A stretch of DNA of 28,652 bases from a virus (Duplodnaviria > Caudoviricetes). The notes under the pieces are model-generated. The model searched no databases. It had not been told where the DNA came from and was given only the letters and a program-made list of their open reading frames with translations. Where the stretch lies: positions 1 through 28,652 of the IMG/VR virus record IMGVR_UViG_3300034116_000503. The stretch is one strand, 5' to 3'. Shown in pieces: positions 6,929 through 26,322 of the stretch; within the stretch, counting starts at the first letter, position 1; each line of letters starts with the position of its first letter. The position numbers were made by a program, and so were the translations under genes.

Positions 6929-7605
6929 ATTATCCGTCTATTGTTTTCGTCAAAGTAATATTTTCTATTTTTCACACCTGCACCAATAATACTAAACGGC
7001 AATTTGGTTTTCACTTGTTTGCAAAGCGTTTCACGCTCGTAAACTACTCCGTCAAGTGTCCAATTAACATCGTTTAAATAGTTAATCATTTCGTTTGCGT
7101 AGGCTGATGTTTGTCCTGCTATTGAGTTTAATAACTCCGCACGTCTTTTATCGCTTACTTGACCAAATCCCTCTTGTTGAAACTGCTCTAATCCCCATTG
7201 TGTACCATGCAAACCTAAGTAAGGCATATATCGTTTCATGGTGCAACCTGCTAACCAACGCTTCACAAACACATTGTAGAAGTTCATCAACTCATAATCA
7301 CCCCAATCTGCGCTTGGTGGTGCTTCATTTACTGCTATTGCATCTAAAGCAATATAATAAACGCCATTATAAAATACTTTATCACCTTCAACATACGTTC
7401 TATTCGTTCTGTATTGTTGTGGGTTCGCTAATATAGCGTTATTAATATCTTCAATTAATTCTTTCGGTAGTTCATTCTTAACGTCCAACGTCTGCGCTAA
7501 TATCACTTGTTGCTCTATCTGTGCTGTTGGTGTATTCGGACTTAACACCGCAAAGAACGGTGTAATATCCACAACGCTAATCCATGCTTTATTATTCGGA
7601 AACAT
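6916..7605 (-). CDS. Head-tail adaptor-like protein with inserted CBM5/12-like module
   Basis: Directly downstream of portal; I..AQ.LDVK and MINYLN helical pattern; internal YVEGDKVFYNGVYYIA...W segment. Confidence 0.6.
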   Translation of the reverse strand: MFPNNKAWISVVDITPFFAVLSPNTPTAQIEQQVILAQTLDVKNELPKELIEDINNAILANPQQYRTNRTYVEGDKVFYNGVYYIALDAIAVNEAPPSADWGDYELMNFYNVFVKRWLAGCTMKRYMPYLGLHGTQWGLEQFQQEGFGQVSDKRRAELLNSIAGQTSAYANEMINYLNDVNWTLDGVVYERETLCKQVKTKLPFSIIGAGVKNRKYYFDENNRRIIWEQ

Positions 7606-8728
7606 TTGGCATATTTATTTGAGTGTTAACAATACCATACTCGCTCAAAGTCCAATCAATATTATTGCCGTACATTGTAGCCATTGTTTCTTGAATTAAT
7701 CCCTGCACTGGTTTAACGGCTTCTCTTAATTCTTTTCTCGCTTGTTCGATTGCGTTTGTGTTTCCTAAAACTGCCGCTTCGCTGTAACCTAGTAATACAG
7801 GATGAACGCCAAATAAACGGCATATTGAACGCTCGATAATATCACGCTTCGTATTTGACGCTTCCAATATTGGTTTCGGGTCTGTTGCTGTGTACGTTGG
7901 TGCTTGTTCGGGTGTTTCAACAAAGTGCGCCAATACTCCGAAACGTGAAGTCAATCCATCTTTATTTTTCTGCAACCCTGTGAACTGCGTCATTGCTTCT
8001 TCCACACGCTGACGGTCTGTTAATCCATCTTCTCCTTCCGTTGTTTCATTTACTCCGCTAAACGTCATGATACCGCCCAAAACAAAGCCATTCAATACGG
8101 CTTCATAGTCCATCTTTGATAACTCGCTTGACGTTTTCAAGTCTTCAAATGCGGCTAAATAATCGGGAAGTCCATAATGCCCACTATCAAAAGGATTTCC
8201 ATTGTAAACATAAAGTATTTCACCACGCCCACCAAAGTGATTGACATTTATATCCATCGCTTCAAATGTAGCTACTTCGCCCTGAAAGTCTTGCAACTCA
8301 ACCCACGCATCACGTCTATATTTGTCAGTTTGTATTGTCGGGTTATAAAACCAAGTCCCATTTATTCCACGTCTAAATTTCTGCAACGGCATTACTTCCG
8401 ATTTCCCTACTCGACCGTTTCCAAGTCTTGAAACATGGATAACAACCGCATTAAAATACGACCATGAAGTAGCAAATATTCCTACAAACTTATCCGCTGT
8501 TTGCTTTGAGTTTACTTTGAACCCCGAAGCAACTGGAGAAACAAATCCATCCGCTTGGATGTACTCCGCATATTTCTTTGCGGCTTTCTTAGCCACGCCA
8601 CTATTGTTGATTGCCTCAATTAATTCTAAAGGCAAATTGTCATTCCATCCATAACGAAAATATCCATCACCTTTTTTTTCAGTAGTGACTGGCAAAATGT
8701 TTTTGAATGTTCGTGTATGTTTGCTCAT
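7592..8728 (-). CDS. Portal protein
   Basis: YG..DNLP..L...IN.S, YGLPDYLAA, LNGF..GGI, ICRLFGVHPVLLG, VKPVQ..I motifs typical of portals. Confidence 0.85.
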   Translation of the reverse strand: MSKHTRTFKNILPVTTEKKGDGYFRYGWNDNLPLELIEAINNSGVAKKAAKKYAEYIQADGFVSPVASGFKVNSKQTADKFVGIFATSWSYFNAVVIHVSRLGNGRVGKSEVMPLQKFRRGINGTWFYNPTIQTDKYRRDAWVELQDFQGEVATFEAMDINVNHFGGRGEILYVYNGNPFDSGHYGLPDYLAAFEDLKTSSELSKMDYEAVLNGFVLGGIMTFSGVNETTEGEDGLTDRQRVEEAMTQFTGLQKNKDGLTSRFGVLAHFVETPEQAPTYTATDPKPILEASNTKRDIIERSICRLFGVHPVLLGYSEAAVLGNTNAIEQARKELREAVKPVQGLIQETMATMYGNNIDWTLSEYGIVNTQINMPNVSE

Positions 8729-9379
8729 TGTATGCCTTTATAATTAACCTCGATTTCTTTGATAGTGCTAAACCCTTTTGGATGTATCACTAACCGTTCG
8801 TTTGGCTTAATGCAAAGGTGCGATTTTTGGTAGTCAATATAGTGACCGTCCACTATTTTTTTAGGACACGAAAGCATTTCAATTAGATTATTGTACGCTC
8901 TCTTGTGTACGATGTACGCAAACGCTCCCCACGTTTGATTTTGCTGAGTAAAGTATTGATTAAAATAAAAAGGGTTACGCCCAAACGAACCGCCTAAATA
9001 AAGGATATGCCAATCTTTTGGTAACTGGTTTAAATACTTTTCAAACTTAGGTTTAAAATCTTTTACGAAAGTTATGTCATCCTCAAAAATAGCGATGCAC
9101 TCATAGCCTCTTTCTTTAGCTAATTTAATAGCGTTCAAGTGGCTTTGAATGCAAGCATATTCGTTATTCGTTACACCTTGAATTGGTGAAACTATTTCTT
9201 TGCCATCAACTGCAATTAGTCTTTCGACTTGAAGGGTCTGCCCCTTTTCTTTGGCTGTGGAATAGAAACATCCTCTAGCCTCTTGTTTGGCACTAACGGT
9301 AAATCGCTCTCGTCTGTCGACACTTCGTTCAAGGTTGATAAAGACGCTGGGAACTGGGATGTTGATAGGCTTTTTTTTT
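8725..9379 (-). CDS. Glycosyltransferase family 25; frame is open well beyond the track start and is probably entered by a -1 shift from the 9216-9551 ORF
   Basis: Frame open from 9402 with no ATG/GTG/TTG until 9138. It encodes FINLERSVDRRERF...ERLIAVDG...ACIQSH...IFEDD...WHILYLG...AYIV, the full GT25 motif series. Confidence 0.85.
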
Positions 9380-9551
9380 GACCTTTTTCTTCGCCCATAA
9401 TGTCAAAGCAATGCGACTTTCCAAACTTGCAGCATAAGTTGTAAAGTTCTTCGCTGATTTGCGTTTCTTTAGTGATAGAAACAATTTGCGTTCCTGCTCG
9501 AAATACTATAGAGCCAACGTCTTTTTTAAGTTTAAATTTTTGAGGTATCAT
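9216..9551 (-). CDS. Small protein with C-terminal AT-hook-like PKKRGRP; N-terminal ~60 aa may be shared with a GT25 fusion
   Basis: 111 aa ORF containing the A9 run at 9371-9379; ends QPKKRGRPFKSKD. Confidence 0.65.
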   Translation of the reverse strand: MIPQKFKLKKDVGSIVFRAGTQIVSITKETQISEELYNLCCKFGKSHCFDIMGEEKGQKKSLSTSQFPASLSTLNEVSTDESDLPLVPNKRLEDVSIPQPKKRGRPFKSKD

Positions 9552-9567
9552 ATTTTGATTTTATTGT

Positions 9568-10176
9568 TTACAAATCTACTTTAATTAGTTCTACACCGCA
9601 AATCTCGTCACGTTCTACTATCTTGTAACGTAGGCTATTTAAGCCGTCAAACGCCCATGTGTGCTGTGTTCTATTCAATCGCTCTTTATTCGCTTTGTAT
9701 TCGCTTGTAATGGGTTGTTTTTCGTGCTTTAGTGACTTGTATCTATGCAACTCGAATTTAGTGCGGATGTTGTTTAGCTTTGTTCGGGTGAATAAGTCAT
9801 CATCTTCGCCACCCCATCCCCAATAATTATTTGAAAATCCATTGCACTTCAAAAAACTTTCGGCATCAAAAGCCGTTACGCCACCAAAACAAGTTTCATA
9901 CGGTACTTTGTAATTGAACTGCTCACATAAACCGCTAAAGTGGACCGCTCCATCAATAGGCTGTGTGTAATGTGCTAGGCTTTCGGCTAATAAATCAACA
10001 TCATGAAAGCAAACCGTTTTATCAGTGCACTCATTAAAGCCTATATTCAGCAACTTACCACGATTAAATAACTCGTTATTCGCTTGTTCGACTACTAAAA
10101 TGTCAAAGCCTTTGTAGTGCTCTACAAATTGTTTTAAGTGGTCAAGTCTATTTCGGTATGGAACTATTAACTTCAT
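9568..10176 (-). CDS. Glycosyltransferase family 7 (beta-1,4-galactosyltransferase-like)
   Basis: IVPYRNR..HL, FNRGKLLNIGF, FHDVDL, FGGV, NGFSNNYWGWGGEDDD are hallmark GT7 motifs. Confidence 0.92.
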   Translation of the reverse strand: MKLIVPYRNRLDHLKQFVEHYKGFDILVVEQANNELFNRGKLLNIGFNECTDKTVCFHDVDLLAESLAHYTQPIDGAVHFSGLCEQFNYKVPYETCFGGVTAFDAESFLKCNGFSNNYWGWGGEDDDLFTRTKLNNIRTKFELHRYKSLKHEKQPITSEYKANKERLNRTQHTWAFDGLNSLRYKIVERDEICGVELIKVDL

Positions 10177-10814
10177 TGATTATGGTTAATTATTGCCCAC
10201 TCTAGGCACTTATCAATTCGCTCGGTCTGCTTCACGTCCTTGCCATACTCACGACTATACCATGAATGTATGCCTATCGGTTTGTCGTTAATGTTTATCA
10301 CCGTACTTGTACCATCTGTTGAAGTTATCTTTGTAAAGTTAGCGTGTTTGAAGTTCAAATGTAGCCAATAGAATAACCCTGCAAACGGCTCATCTACATT
10401 GCCATTCTTTTCGCACTGGTTTGCGTAGTCATAAACCTTTGAGTTGTCAAATTTTGACAATTTAGTTTTAATCATGTCCACGTTAAATACATTAAAGAAC
10501 GGATTGACGTGGAAAAATGATTTGTCTCTATGGCTAATCACTCCCTTATCGGGAACACCACAATAGGCAAAGTCATTTCGTGTCATGTCAGCAATCACTT
10601 GGTCTATTAAATCTTCATTGGTAACAAAGAAATCTTCGTCAGCGTTTACGATTATGCCATTGTAGTTTTCAAGAATGTGAAGGAGATAAGTCAGCGCACC
10701 ATGAAACCCTGTAAACTGTTGCAACCTTACGAAAGTATTGTCATCACGCCATAATGATTTTGATAGGCTGTAAAGTTTATCGTTTGCGCTTCGGGTTATA
10801 ATTGTTTTCTTCAT
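10173..10814 (-). CDS. Putative GT-A fold glycosyltransferase
   Basis: IIVNADEDFF (DxD after a beta strand), late HSWYSR histidine; adjacent to two other GTs. Confidence 0.55.
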   Translation of the reverse strand: MKKTIITRSANDKLYSLSKSLWRDDNTFVRLQQFTGFHGALTYLLHILENYNGIIVNADEDFFVTNEDLIDQVIADMTRNDFAYCGVPDKGVISHRDKSFFHVNPFFNVFNVDMIKTKLSKFDNSKVYDYANQCEKNGNVDEPFAGLFYWLHLNFKHANFTKITSTDGTSTVININDKPIGIHSWYSREYGKDVKQTERIDKCLEWAIINHNQ

Positions 10815-11092
10815 GCAAATATCTGTTTTACTTCATTACTAAATAGTTTTACGCTATGCTCTAATTCAGTTACTCCATGTCCATCTTTCTTATTGCAAAA
10901 GCTATCAAAGTCACAACCGATATACTTCATATCTTTAAAATACCAAACGAACGCCACGCCATTGAAAACTTTATCCGCTTTCATTCGCTCAAAGCGTTTA
11001 TCCGTAGCCTCGTAAATACTAGGAAAGTGTTTAAGTGTGGCTAACCTTGTTAAACTTAGAAGCCAATGTCTGTATTTCTCGATTTCGCTCAT
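10811..11092 (-). CDS. Hypothetical protein
   Basis: 93 aa ORF with ATGA overlaps on both sides. Confidence 0.65.
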   Translation of the reverse strand: MSEIEKYRHWLLSLTRLATLKHFPSIYEATDKRFERMKADKVFNGVAFVWYFKDMKYIGCDFDSFCNKKDGHGVTELEHSVKLFSNEVKQIFA

Positions 11093-11430
11093 ATCATTTT
11101 TTTATAAATATCAATCCGACTTTTAATAAACTCGCATAATTCATATTTCTCTAATGCCTTAAACTCAATCAATGCTTTAGTCAAAGCGTATTTATTTACC
11201 TTTAAAATCTCAGCATCACTACTATTGTACTTCGCTATGTTAGTCGTATAATATTTGCGCATTGAAACCATCGCATCAACCAAACATGAACTGCAATTCC
11301 CTTTTAATTTCTTGTTGAAAATTAGTGTATAGTAATATCGGATAGTTACTCCGCTTACATTGTTTACGCTACCTTTTGAGATTACATTCTCATTCAACTC
11401 ATTTAAAAAAGATAGGCTTCTCACTTCCAT
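11089..11430 (-). CDS. Hypothetical protein with CxxC (CSSC)
   Basis: 113 aa; Y..IFNKK...NCSSC; first gene after the major tail terminator. Confidence 0.7.
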   Translation of the reverse strand: MEVRSLSFLNELNENVISKGSVNNVSGVTIRYYYTLIFNKKLKGNCSSCLVDAMVSMRKYYTTNIAKYNSSDAEILKVNKYALTKALIEFKALEKYELCEFIKSRIDIYKKMI

Positions 11431-22123: not shown

Positions 22124-22408
22124 CTATTTTCTCATCATTTTCTGCTGTTGCTGTTGTGCGGCTTGTAAATCTTTTTGATACATGGACTTTTCAAAGTCGT
22201 GAAGGAGAATATCGTAAATCAAAGTCGCCTGCATATTTGTGACTTCCTCAATAGTTTTGCCCCATCTGTCCATCATGGCAAAGATAGTGGCTTTCGCTCC
22301 GAACTTTTTGAACCTGTCCACGTTTGCTATTGCCTCCGCTTGGCTTGGTTTGTAGTCGTTCAATCTTTTATAACGCTCAAAGAACTTTTTGAGTGCAGAA
22401 AAAAAAAA
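22124..22408 (-). CDS. Tail assembly chaperone, frameshifted C-terminal extension (gpGT-like)
   Basis: -1 frame relative to 22360-22806, entered at T10 (22399-22408); the only alternative start is a TTG at 22414. Confidence 0.65.
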   Translation of the reverse strand, partial: FFFSALKKFFERYKRLNDYKPSQAEAIANVDRFKKFGAKATIFAMMDRWGKTIEEVTNMQATLIYDILLHDFEKSMYQKDLQAAQQQQQKMMRK

Positions 22409-22806
22409 GCGCAAATAGGGTTCGCCTCATCAGTAGGCACTTCGCTAAAATCAATGTCGGTGTAGATTTTCGCAATGCCAATCAAAGCGTCCTTCGGTTT
22501 GTCATGTTGAAGGAGTAAAGACTTCGCCATCTCTAGTTTGCCGTAGCTTTCACGCCCAATGTCAATTTGTTTATCTTTTTCTAAGTAAGCGTTTGGAGGC
22601 TCGTGCATAAACTGCAATGCCGTAAACAACGCCCCTAGTGCTTCGCTGTTTAGCTTGTTTAATGTTGTGGTCGGTACACCTAGCAAACAACTAGCTTGGT
22701 CAAGTGCTGTTTCATGGTTTAGAAACTCGATGTACTTCTTAAAAGGCACATCGCCCCAATTAGTCGGGATGTTAATTAGTTCCTCGTTTATTTTTCCTTG
22801 TATCAT
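22360..22806 (-). CDS. Tail assembly chaperone (gpG-like)
   Basis: IPTNWGDVPFKKYIEF N-terminus; AFFF slippery site near the C-terminus. Confidence 0.65.
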   Translation of the reverse strand: MIQGKINEELINIPTNWGDVPFKKYIEFLNHETALDQASCLLGVPTTTLNKLNSEALGALFTALQFMHEPPNAYLEKDKQIDIGRESYGKLEMAKSLLLQHDKPKDALIGIAKIYTDIDFSEVPTDEANPICAFFFLHSKSSLSVIKD

Positions 22807-23950
22807 ATTAGACTATTTTTTCTTATTCCTGTGCTTGTTTTATGCTTGGTTAAATACATTGTGCTGTATCGTAGTGGGTCAATGCAATGATTAAACGCAT
22901 CAACTGGTATTCCTGCTTTTTTATCGTTCCAAATATAGTTAGATAATTCTTTTCGTAAATTGTGCGATGTTCGTGTTATCACTATTTGATAGTCTTGCAT
23001 CTTTGTTATCCCTGCGCTCACACTTCCTGCACCCTTTTCGCATGGTATTATATTCGTTCCTTTTCGTCTCAAATCGTCTATCAATCTAGGTTCAGCACTA
23101 TCCGCAATGATTAACTCATTCGGCTTCGTGGCTTGTTTATTTGCCTCGAATATTTCGTTTGTACCCATGCCAACGGTTGAATAAAACTTTTCATCAGCGT
23201 AGATAATCTTTTTCTTTTCGTCAACCGCCACTTTGACTAAAGTTGTCGGGTCAACACTAAAGCCATAATCTTGACCGTAAACGTATGGCAAAGAATTATC
23301 GAACTCCCCATGTGTCCAGTTGGTGAAGATTGCGCCTTGTCGGTTTGCCCTTTCACCGCTTCCGTAAATTGTCCACCAATATTGGTTTGACTTTCTGCTT
23401 TCGATGTCCTCAATCTGCGCTTGGGTCAAATATGGATTGTCTTTGTAGGTGGTTATTAGCGGTGGATATTTTTCAATGTAAGGGTCAAGCCAATGTTCCA
23501 AACCTAAAGCAGGGTTATAATCGCAAATAATTCTATGCCTTGTTCGTGGGAATAGTTGGTCGATTGTTTCTTGTGGGAACTGGTGCGCCTCGTTTATCCA
23601 AATGAAGTCACGGCTGCGTCCGTGTATCTTTGCAGGAGTGTCCGCACCGTAGTAGCTTATTATATTGCCGTGCAAATTATAATAGTGTTCGCTTTTGTTA
23701 TGGTGCAAATCATTATACACGCCACACTCAATTAGAACGTCTTTAAAGTCTTTCCAAGCCGTTGCACGTAAAGCAGTAAAGGTATCACGAACTATGTCTA
23801 TATCAAGCCCTGTGTAATTCTCACATAGCCAAATGATGTAATAGATAACCGAGTAACTTTTCCCCGACCTTGTGCCACCTTGCAAAAGTGTTATCCGTTG
23901 CGACTTAACTTTTTTTTTAAAAAGCGAAAGTTTGGATTACTATTCTTCAT
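22803..23950 (-). CDS. terL: Terminase large subunit (PBSX-type); N-terminus joined across a -1 shift at A9 (23910-23918)
   Basis: Walker A GGTRSGKS, Walker B IWINEA, nuclease GQDYG..DP and NHCIDPLRY. The track start (TTG 23885) removes the strand before Walker A. Confidence 0.92.
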
Positions 23951-24250: not shown

Positions 24251-25051
24251 TTAATTCTCTGTTAATCCTTTAAATGCTTTTAGCGGATAAAACACCAATG
24301 AGTTTCTATAACCGCCCTCAAATGTAGGGATAATCGGTGTAACTCCATGCACATTTCTCCACGCTGGATAAACCAAAATAGAATTATCTTGTTGTCCTAT
24401 TGTTGCATTGTAATCGGGTATATGCAAATCACCTCCTTTTGAATTATGTTTCTTGCAAATAATAACATTTACTGCTCCAATTATGTTTTTAGTATCCCTA
24501 TGGAATGGTGCTGAAATATTATAGTTTGAAATTGAACTTGTAAATAAATTTCCAAACCTCCATTTTTGTGGCACATCTTTAAATAATTCAACTTGATGTT
24601 CATATTGTGTTGGTAATAATTCTTTTATTAACTGCTCACTTTCCTTTGCAAGTAATAACATTGCTTTTATAAAAGTTTCTGATTTTTTATTTAAATGAAC
24701 ACTTGAAATTGATGGATATGGTCTTGACATATGAGGTTTTGGTGGAATACTTCCTATTATTGCACTTAATTGCTCAACTTCATTTTTGTATTTAAAGTTT
24801 CCAGTTTTTTCATCAATACCATCTCCTGTTCTTCTTGTCAATAAAGTTTTTTTTACGTTTTTACTTCTAAATTCTGCATTTGCTAAGTCTGCCAACTTGC
24901 ACATTTTTTCAGGCATTTTCGTAAGGTAAAAACCTATCGGTTCGCCATCTGCATAAAAGATACAATCTTCAGTAACATTAGGCTCAATATATTCACACGC
25001 TTCTCCAATTTTACGATTATGCTTTACTTCAATTAAATCTATACGTTTCAT
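24251..25051 (-). CDS. TET/JBP-family 2OG-Fe(II) dioxygenase
   Basis: FTSSISNYN...FHRD..N (HxD), GGDL.IPDY, HGVTPI (distal His), RNSLVFY (2OG-binding Arg). Confidence 0.88.
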   Translation of the reverse strand: MKRIDLIEVKHNRKIGEACEYIEPNVTEDCIFYADGEPIGFYLTKMPEKMCKLADLANAEFRSKNVKKTLLTRRTGDGIDEKTGNFKYKNEVEQLSAIIGSIPPKPHMSRPYPSISSVHLNKKSETFIKAMLLLAKESEQLIKELLPTQYEHQVELFKDVPQKWRFGNLFTSSISNYNISAPFHRDTKNIIGAVNVIICKKHNSKGGDLHIPDYNATIGQQDNSILVYPAWRNVHGVTPIIPTFEGGYRNSLVFYPLKAFKGLTEN

Positions 25052-25054
25052 ATA

Positions 25055-25753
25055 TTATTTATTAAATGCGAAAACATTTGTACAAGCTGGAAACCAACTT
25101 TTTTGCCAAACATCATAATCACGTGTTTTGAATTTTGCTGTATTTCCAATATCTTTCAAATCGTTGTATTGCTTTTGTTGTTTTTCAATAATTTTCCAAA
25201 ATCTCGGCAAACTATCATCAATATCGAAACTCCATTCATAAACTAATTTTTTAAATACTTTTTTTGTATTTTCTAAAATCAACATTTCAGCTCCTTCAAT
25301 ATCCATTTTGCAACAATCAAATTTTTTAGCTTCATCTTCAAAATTTAAACAAGGAACTTTTATTCCTTTGTTATTCCATTTCTTCACTATTGAATTTCTC
25401 CAAACATTGCCGTTGTTGCCAATAAATAAAATGATTTCTTTAGTGTCATTATGGACTAATGCAGCTTGTTTCACTTCTGCAGTAAATCCATTTAGTTCTA
25501 AATTCTTTTTAATCATTTCGCAATTAAAAGGGTCTGGTTCATAAACTGTAACCTTTGCACCTTTTGAACAAGCTAATAAAGTAAATGCCCCTACATTGCC
25601 ACCGCAATCCATCCAAGTTTCACCTGCTTGAATTGTCATTGATTTCTTTAAATAAACTTCATTACCTAAAACTTCATCAAATGTTTTTTTATCTGACATC
25701 CCATCTCTGTAATAAAATTTAATTCCTTTGATTTCTCCTTTGTTTAATTTCAT
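25055..25753 (-). CDS. FkbM-family SAM-dependent methyltransferase
   Basis: WMDCGGNVGAF, YEPDPFN...KKN, KMDIEGAE. Confidence 0.9.
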   Translation of the reverse strand: MKLNKGEIKGIKFYYRDGMSDKKTFDEVLGNEVYLKKSMTIQAGETWMDCGGNVGAFTLLACSKGAKVTVYEPDPFNCEMIKKNLELNGFTAEVKQAALVHNDTKEIILFIGNNGNVWRNSIVKKWNNKGIKVPCLNFEDEAKKFDCCKMDIEGAEMLILENTKKVFKKLVYEWSFDIDDSLPRFWKIIEKQQKQYNDLKDIGNTAKFKTRDYDVWQKSWFPACTNVFAFNK

Positions 25754-26322
25754 ATCTTATTTTTTTCTTCTTTAAGATATTCCATTATCATTCCACCAAC
25801 ATAACCGCCTTTGTCTCTCCAAAACTTTACAAGTGCATAAGCCTCTTCATAGTGTTCTGCTTCAAATTCAATCTGTATAGCTTTCTTAACACCATCAGTC
25901 ATTTCTTCAAGTTGCTTTGAAACATCTTCATCATCAAGAATAGAATAATCAACTGCTGGTGAAAAAGTTGGAACATCTAATCCCCAATCCCCTAACTCCT
26001 CAGCATCCCATTCGTTTGCTAACATCTCCCAATCCCATTCACCACCGCTAGTATTATCTTTGATAAGAAATTCACGTTGCTGTTCTTCGGTTAGTTTGTC
26101 AGCAACAATAACTGGTATCTCTTTCAATCCTGCTTCTACACAAGCTTTGTAGCGCATATTGCCACCAAGTATAATCATATCAGCGTTAACCACTATCGGA
26201 CGAATGTCAAGCATTTCGGGGAAGTCTTTTATTGACTGCACCAACTTTTTAAACTTGTCATCTTTAATTAATCTTGGATTGTTTGGATTTAGTTTGATTT
26301 TGCTAGTTGCTATTTTCTTCAT
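25750..26322 (-). CDS. ParB/Srx N-terminal domain protein
   Basis: IKLNPNNPR.I, RPIVV...ILGGNMRYKA, IKDN...GEWD; no methylase domain fused. Confidence 0.88.
   Translation of the reverse strand: MKKIATSKIKLNPNNPRLIKDDKFKKLVQSIKDFPEMLDIRPIVVNADMIILGGNMRYKACVEAGLKEIPVIVADKLTEEQQREFLIKDNTSGGEWDWEMLANEWDAEELGDWGLDVPTFSPAVDYSILDDEDVSKQLEEMTDGVKKAIQIEFEAEHYEEAYALVKFWRDKGGYVGGMIMEYLKEEKNKI

Follow-up and report, generated by a model that had tools for sequence, protein, structure and literature searches.

Programmed transcriptional realignment in bacteria is known from dnaX of Thermus thermophilus, spa13/mxiE of Shigella, tssM1 of Citrobacter and IS elements, where a homopolymer of at least nine nucleotides (A9–A11 or T9) lies at the junction and two apparently needed products share their N-terminus (PMC5009743, PMC4256274, PMC6260861). 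Nine A or T residues represent the length for efficient slippage by bacterial RNA polymerase (PMC5009743, PMC6260861, PMC4256274, PMC3711429), and the known cases yield 20–50 % of product (PMC5009743, PMC6260861, PMC4256274). For phage late genes, −1 ribosomal shifts leading to a minor longer product are the described norm, i.e., in lambda G/GT, the capsid extensions of T7/T3 and A2, and Ig-like extensions (PMC5009743). In the accessible sections of the same source, recoding of a terminase is represented only by candidate bypassing in Streptomyces phage Hau3 (PMC5009743).

The locus described here resembles the bacterial cases by its homopolymer of nine or more nucleotides, the shared N-terminus and two apparently needed products, but belongs to a morphogenesis operon of a dsDNA phage, with up to three genes concerned, and its short form runs about 50 conserved, dual-coded codons past the site. 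With the phage −1 shifts it has in common the late-gene junction and the presumed minor longer product, and a third site (22399–22408) resembles G/GT. In contrast to these, an enzyme is added, selection acts on both frames of a long overlap, and a homopolymer of 9–10 nt in any codon phase, with no hairpin found, forms the site. Full-text searches revealed neither this site nor a phage glycosyltransferase made by frameshifting nor a homopolymer-shifted terminase, and productive transcriptional slippage in late genes of dsDNA phages was likewise not encountered; subscription journals and supplements may bear on this.

The window, i.e., the whole stretch of DNA analyzed, is a virus record of 28,652 nt (about 78 % complete, GC 30–42 %). 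Near-identical DNA is contained in lake-water metagenomes, with half or more of its words in 18 of the 24 runs listed and 10 runs flagged as possible source. All window features given below are located on the minus strand, where the morphogenesis operon has the order terminase, tape-measure-like protein, Clp-type protease, major capsid-like protein, GT7, small gene/GT25 and portal. The portal gene (7592–8728; PF04860, phrog_11226) overlaps the stop of the GT25 frame.

The slip site is a run of nine A (9371–9379; T9 on the plus strand), which is read as GGT CAA AAA AAA AGC within an ORF of 111 amino acids (9216–9551) without Pfam or PHROG family above cut-off. The product of this ORF consists of an N-terminal domain of about 57 residues (9381–9551; predicted three strands, helix, strand), a linker and a basic tail. 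Frame 0 continues for 50–51 codons beyond the run and ends in PKKRGRPFKSKD, with the basic motif PKKRGRP at 9234–9254. The −1 frame is open from 9402 to 8725 (225 codons), has a TTG at 9138 as its first ATG/GTG/TTG codon and encodes a start-less GT25 glycosyltransferase (8725–9372; PF01755), comprising the first motif INLxRxxDR (9313–9339; strand 1 and start of helix 1), a conserved Cys (9151–9153) and the EDD motif (9076–9084). The segment at 9216–9370 is dual-coded, as frame-0 tail and as GT25 N-terminus, and is constrained in both frames. A −1 step at the run would join the 111-aa ORF to the GT25 frame, giving 275 aa by arithmetic. The run, the extent of the start-less frame and the length of the joined product are as the first-pass annotation of this DNA had described them. 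A gene caller would report only an ORF of 137 aa (8725–9138).

The length of the run withstood a check against reads-derived contigs, which give A9; the contigs of all four DNA runs span it without indel. The RNA run X19 contributed two contigs over the site with no indel, although assembled contigs drop minor forms; in the RNA runs X20, X21 and X24 the site lies outside the coverage. All 13 close IMG/VR loci (92–100 % nucleotide identity, 12 contigs) are gap-free at the run. In two of them A10 is formed by a G-to-A substitution with the offset kept, and in five a TGA interrupts the GT frame 14 nt ahead of the run. Among these 13 loci, substitutions are silent for the frame-0 product as far as the run, whereas directly beyond it most of them are silent for GT25.

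Matches were obtained for 73 viral and 80 metagenome loci, of which the 51 matching over the entire GT25 frame with at least 48 % identity were analyzed; L114 (without junction) and 101 distant GT25s were set aside. The 51 loci represent 46 distinct sequences from roughly ten deep lineages with GT25 identities of 48–100 %. The run measures A9 in 32 and A10 in 19 of them and is never shorter than nine, and the −1 offset is kept in 51/51 (in frame 0/51, third frame 0/51), the run occupying all three codon phases (37/8/6). Two further A9 cases were found in L216 and L218. Elsewhere in 293,680 nt of the orthologous loci only three A runs of nine or more occur, and lysine runs in the tail of the small gene reach A5 at most (46/46 sequences). 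The occurrence of the run at this site thus exceeds chance.

In these relatives the GT frame is closed by a stop 0–34 nt before the run, the stop overlapping the run in 20/51 loci. No ATG, GTG or TTG precedes the first GT25 motif in 50/51 loci; in the one exception a TTG lies ahead of the run. Counted from the motif, the first canonical start is reached after 53–154 codons. The relatives, which the first-pass annotation had suggested consulting for an in-frame fusion or an ATG-started GT25, contain neither (0/51 each). The frame-0 tail comprises 48–58 codons in the 51 loci and ends with a lysine-rich G-R/P motif. The annotated phage collection contains only distant GT25s (3 records, <30 %).

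Substitutions were counted in eight groups of close relatives (39 loci). In the single-coded part of GT25, 289 of 2301 possible silent versus 94 of 9348 replacing changes were observed, and in the shared N-terminal domain 123/831 versus 63/3174. Within the overlap, substitutions that spare GT25 and affect the tail (48/791) are rarer than silent changes in single-coded GT25 (p = 1e-7); those that spare the tail and affect GT25 amount to 35/835 as compared to 123/831 (p = 5e-14). Hence, the overlap of about 50 codons is under purifying selection in both frames. Constraint at the RNA level could contribute to the overlap counts; no RNA structure was found. The invariant columns of the first half belong to the GT frame (P, I-N-L-x-R-S-x-D-R, F) and those of the second half to frame 0 (K, K, G, K, K and the stop), and indels in the overlap are in-frame triplets. 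The PKKRGRP-bearing frame is accordingly both conserved and constrained, in agreement with the earlier suggestion that both frames are functional.

Three apparent signals were discarded. The invariant S-x-L-x-E of the tail is only a shadow of the GT motif, and an open stretch that some loci conserve ahead of the small gene reflects GT7 in the same way. The stop-free tail is weak as stand-alone proof, with P of 0.01–0.21 per lineage and the lineages being related.

The GT25 frame matches PF01755 from its residue 21 (46 bits versus a cut-off of 24, E 7.5e-12), and its AF2 model reached a pLDDT of 85 and a pTM of 0.85. The closest solved folds are protein/glycan galactosyltransferases: COLGALT1 (9u7j; Z 18.4, rmsd 2.3, 183 residues aligned, i.e., a GT-A fold), mimivirus R655 (Z 17.9) and the bacterial β-1,4-galactosyltransferase 8xc8 (Z 16.2). 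Fold, EDD and Leu/Ala/Cys donor pocket are shared with the GT2 domain of COLGALT1, R655 and 8xc8. In COLGALT1, Leu348, Ala374 and Cys412 line the uridine pocket, and the Cys412Ser variant is inactive (PMC12003778). The EDD metal motif and the pocket residues are invariant in 24/24 aligned rows and map to COLGALT1 Leu348, Ala374, Cys412 and Glu435–Asp437, with the Leu of INLxRxxDR aligning to Leu348 of the pocket. Since the equivalents of Leu, Ala and Cys are all encoded upstream of the 137-aa ORF, this ORF cannot be the enzyme, and its earlier description as incomplete holds.

In the AF2 model, strand 1 and helix 1 are built from GT-frame residues 7–31 (pLDDT about 90), residues 41–45 staying below 50. 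The modelled GT25 fold is shown to be complete when the N-terminus provided by the overlap is counted. After helix 1 the enzyme contains an insertion of 10–20 residues that varies in length by whole codons and is located exactly under the frame-0 basic motif, in the window as a low-confidence loop. This insertion hosting the basic motif of the other frame, the missing start and the N-terminal domain without match distinguish the enzyme from the above GT25s. In 13 of 16 close database homologs, gene callers clip GT25 to 133–151 aa.

The small protein is predicted to form a compact domain (AF2 pLDDT about 86 over residues 11–50) followed by a disordered tail. The domain family counts 24 matches, about 17 of them real 50 % clusters, among 1.84 billion representatives; in the distant members listed a lysine run occupies the corresponding position, and their tails can accommodate the GT motif. 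No match was found in Pfam, PHROGs or PDB sequences, and comparison of structures gave none that was convincing (solved folds Z ≤ 2.4; BFVD E ≥ 0.007 with Foldseek; Atlas ≤ 0.85, DUF7302 0.77), which does not show a new fold. In nine longer proteins (P0033–P0041) the whole small protein forms the C-terminal part of an in-frame glycosyltransferase-like fusion, the partner being a GT2 in P0033 and a weakly GT-B-like family in the other eight. L112 (2–499) encodes such a fusion, yet A9 and GT25 are still present. Scans for the DNA of P0033–P0041 gave, besides L112, only L179 and L180. The association of the domain with glycosyltransferases thus recurs, as expected of a docking tag. In P0033–P0041, P0050, P0051 and L112 (2–499), the fused small protein retains an internal Met with an A-rich leader, and slippage in these longer fusions would yield a two-enzyme chain of more than 500 aa.

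The last 13 residues of the tail carry a net charge of +3 to +7 in 12/12 representatives. The AT-hook-like character proposed in the first-pass annotation is retained only in part. The tail is basic and loosely alike in its G-R-P residues, but RGRP, which we take to be the AT-hook core, is present in 3/12 representatives (GRP in 8/12), the window protein gave no PF02178 match at E ≤ 1, and the six weak matches among 21 members (best E 0.015) all stay below the Pfam cut-off. The lysine-rich G-R-P tail is probably, in a putative sense, nucleic-acid binding.

The window contains three homopolymers of nine or more nucleotides, all at −1 junctions. One of the two further sites (A9, 23910–23918) is located in a frame-0 mini-ORF of 19 aa (23891–23950) with the start of the large terminase subunit, whose start-less body follows in the −1 frame (22803–23918). 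The joined product of 382 aa has the length of the in-frame TerL of the complete relative G006. From 246 matched terminase loci 80 were kept; five had no Walker-A match and the remaining 75 reduce to 57 distinct 5′ ends. Twelve of these alleles have the conserved N-terminus in another frame, with A9 or A10 in 12/12, as compared to A9 in 1 of the 45 in-frame alleles. On a tree of 61 proteins at least six changes between in-frame and shifted states are required, by repeated change or recombination. Since the terminase is essential, these phages must be able to carry out the A9 shift, provided that the contigs represent viable genomes.

The other site (sense-strand T10, 22399–22408) is the junction of a pair of genes at 22124–22806, termed tail-assembly-chaperone-like (G/T) on account of size and frameshift pattern. 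The pair has no Pfam match and only weak, unnamed PHROG matches. Among 81 loci of this pair, 39 lack one match, and the other 42 reduce to 29 distinct junctions: T9 or T10 is found in 25/25 shifted junctions, and four are in-frame fusions without the run. These in-frame fusions belong to distant relatives (e.g., L180:4217–4882).

Genome-wide counts show 61 homopolymers of eight and 27 of nine nucleotides, with no sharp drop at nine, and in seven genomes 15 of 33 long runs (≥9) are located away from junctions. An A9 run at L252:7367 (G011) lies inside an uninterrupted frame of about 700 codons with no evident junction. T10 or A9 runs common to relatives, inside or near ORF ends, were encountered at L247:1319 and L251:5591, at L250:5365 and L253:12147, and at L245:684; these are possible additional slip sites.

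In our estimate the most probable explanation of the whole, at roughly 0.58, is slippage of the host RNA polymerase on A9/A10, giving two proteins from one start. In part of the late transcripts the polymerase would insert an additional A. Unslipped mRNA would direct synthesis of the 111-aa protein, with its compact N-terminal domain, acidic linker and lysine-rich G-R-P tail. From mRNA with one extra A the 275-aa N-domain–GT25 enzyme would be formed, and one A fewer would lead to a stop within 0–15 codons. That the fusion is made appears very probable from its layout, conservation, selection on both frames and complete fold. Given a fusion, the step is somewhat better than evenly placed to be transcriptional. 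The run has a floor of 9–10 nt at three unrelated genes, in A as well as T and in any phase, which fits the length of the RNA–DNA hybrid and the slippage threshold of the polymerase. Slippage by polymerases of Bacteroidota was not found described in the texts consulted.

The ribosome is a live rival, and both mechanisms may contribute. The same two products would arise if ribosomes shifted by −1 on A_AAA_AAA, in the manner known from the tail chaperones and capsid extensions of phages. This heptamer is present in frame 0 at 51/51 GT25 loci, the direction is always −1, the strong bacterial A_AAA_AAG occurs at 11 of 12 shifted terminase alleles, and ribosomal shifts, including G-T, are the known phage norm (PMC5009743). 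At the GT25 loci, however, A_AAA_AAG is found in only 6/51, and A_AAA_AAA is much weaker than A_AAA_AAG in Escherichia coli (PMC5009743). Moreover, a stable hairpin within 70 nt 3′ of the run is absent from 12/12 representatives (z −1.2 to +1.7). For a ribosomal shift on A_AAA_AAA, 7–8 A would suffice, but the extra A past the heptamer is kept in all phases, and the T runs are also exactly 9–10 nt long. Frameshifting by the ribosome appears rather unlikely, without being negligible.

A separate start of GT25, from a near-cognate ATC/ATT after the run or by re-initiation at the stop of the small gene, is highly improbable. The A run would then act as an A-rich initiation enhancer of the Bacteroidota type; A-rich leaders do precede starts in these phages, and an ATH or CTG codon lies between run and motif in 46/51 loci. 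These codons vary in position and identity, the ATC codons named earlier as possible starts are not conserved, and 5/51 loci have no such codon. Re-initiation at the stop would omit the invariant, selected first strand and helix. Nor could a separate start give rise to the terminase, the conserved N-terminus of which is encoded upstream of the run in the other frame.

Phase variation, in which replication of the DNA would alter the run length and glycosylation would be turned on in rare in-frame genomes, has an even smaller chance of being right. Homopolymers in surface-glycan genes are a classic device of this kind (PMC3711429), and rare variants would be hidden by contigs. Yet all 51 loci show the −1 arrangement rather than an in-frame or third-frame one, A10 arose by substitution with the offset kept, and the contigs of four DNA runs reveal no indel. 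Purifying selection on GT25 is strong, and the terminase cannot be mostly off. A shared sequencing or assembly error or a decaying pseudogene is largely refuted; the annotation had already argued against a plain sequencing error, as both frames look functional. Homopolymers are error-prone, but lineages of 48–65 % identity share the offset, both frames are constrained, indels are triplets and Illumina-derived contigs agree.

At every locus inspected, the glycosyltransferase genes form a cluster flanked by those for capsid and portal. Besides the small gene/GT25 it contains a syntenic GT7-family glycosyltransferase (9568–10176; PF02709/PF13733) and a 213-aa protein (10173–10814), as a lead only a possible GT-A enzyme; both are present in 6/6 near-complete relatives. 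The 213-aa protein displays a DxD-like stretch, its Atlas look-alikes are viral, and one cluster has PF00535 on 13 % of its members. A gene for a 113-aa CxxC protein (11089–11430), located between a 191-aa structural gene and the glycosyltransferases, is also present in 6/6 near-complete relatives and has no family match.

A variable DNA-modification cassette is found at 24251–26322, and at L245:17978–18694, beside ParB and terminase. It contains a TET_JBP oxygenase and a FkbM methyltransferase in the window, and a TET-associated glycosyltransferase (TAGT, PF20691) in G004, G006 and G008 (3/7 genomes); neither TET_JBP/FkbM nor PF20691 is present in G009, G011 and G014. TET_JBP and FkbM are absent from 14/14 records by a first look, and from 6/6 near-complete relatives that keep the fusion according to tblastn. 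A link of the fusion to DNA modification was rejected for this reason, and the same absence makes DNA a less likely destination of the enzyme. Glycosylation of a virion protein is favoured over DNA modification, because the glycosyltransferase cluster is fixed between capsid and portal genes and the DNA-modification genes vary. A virion protein is therefore, at modest odds, the preferred target of the enzyme.

Virion glycosylation is known for mycobacteriophage Che8, with several phage-encoded glycosyltransferases and the capsid as plausible target (cited in PMC11256854). The present phages are similar in both respects but differ from Che8 in the position of these genes between capsid and portal, and in the presumed expression through recoding. 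One may speculate that the N-terminal domain serves as docking tag by which a minor amount of enzyme would be brought to virion proteins during assembly, where the GT7 and 213-aa enzymes would act beside N-domain–GT25. This docking and glycosylation role is conceivable at somewhat less than even odds.

The host may weakly be assigned to Bacteroidota by placement of metagenome-assembled genomes (MAGs) and the A-rich leaders; MAGs with orthologous contigs comprise one of Chitinophagales and one of Beijerinckiaceae. A scan for promoters and terminators gave nothing above chance level. Among the 42 ORFs of the complete relative G006 an RNA polymerase family is absent.

On a broader scale, the amounts of large terminase and chaperone-like G-T fusion appear to be governed by the same device. 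Polymerase slippage would then be a general dosing device of the morphogenesis operon (glycosyltransferase, terminase, tail chaperone), combined with the 50-codon two-frame overlap, a docking domain ending in either a DNA-binding tail or a virion-glycosylating enzyme, and an enzyme loop grown to fit the motif of the other frame. This extended proposal is tentative, the chances being nearer one in three than one in two.

The hidden frameshift fusion of the first-pass annotation, one N-terminal domain with two tails, is supported by run and offset in 51/51 loci and by constraint on both frames. For this recoding site, which belongs to abundant lake phages not yet cultured, the comparative proof is unusually clean, and natural controls are provided by the terminase, whose in-frame and shifted alleles exist side by side. 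With GT25 truncated and the terminase clipped by gene callers, annotations do not reveal the products. It can be seen from the overlap how a bacterial-type genome is able to maintain two selected proteins on a single stretch, and the system as a whole would exemplify productive slippage of transcription in the late genes of dsDNA phages.
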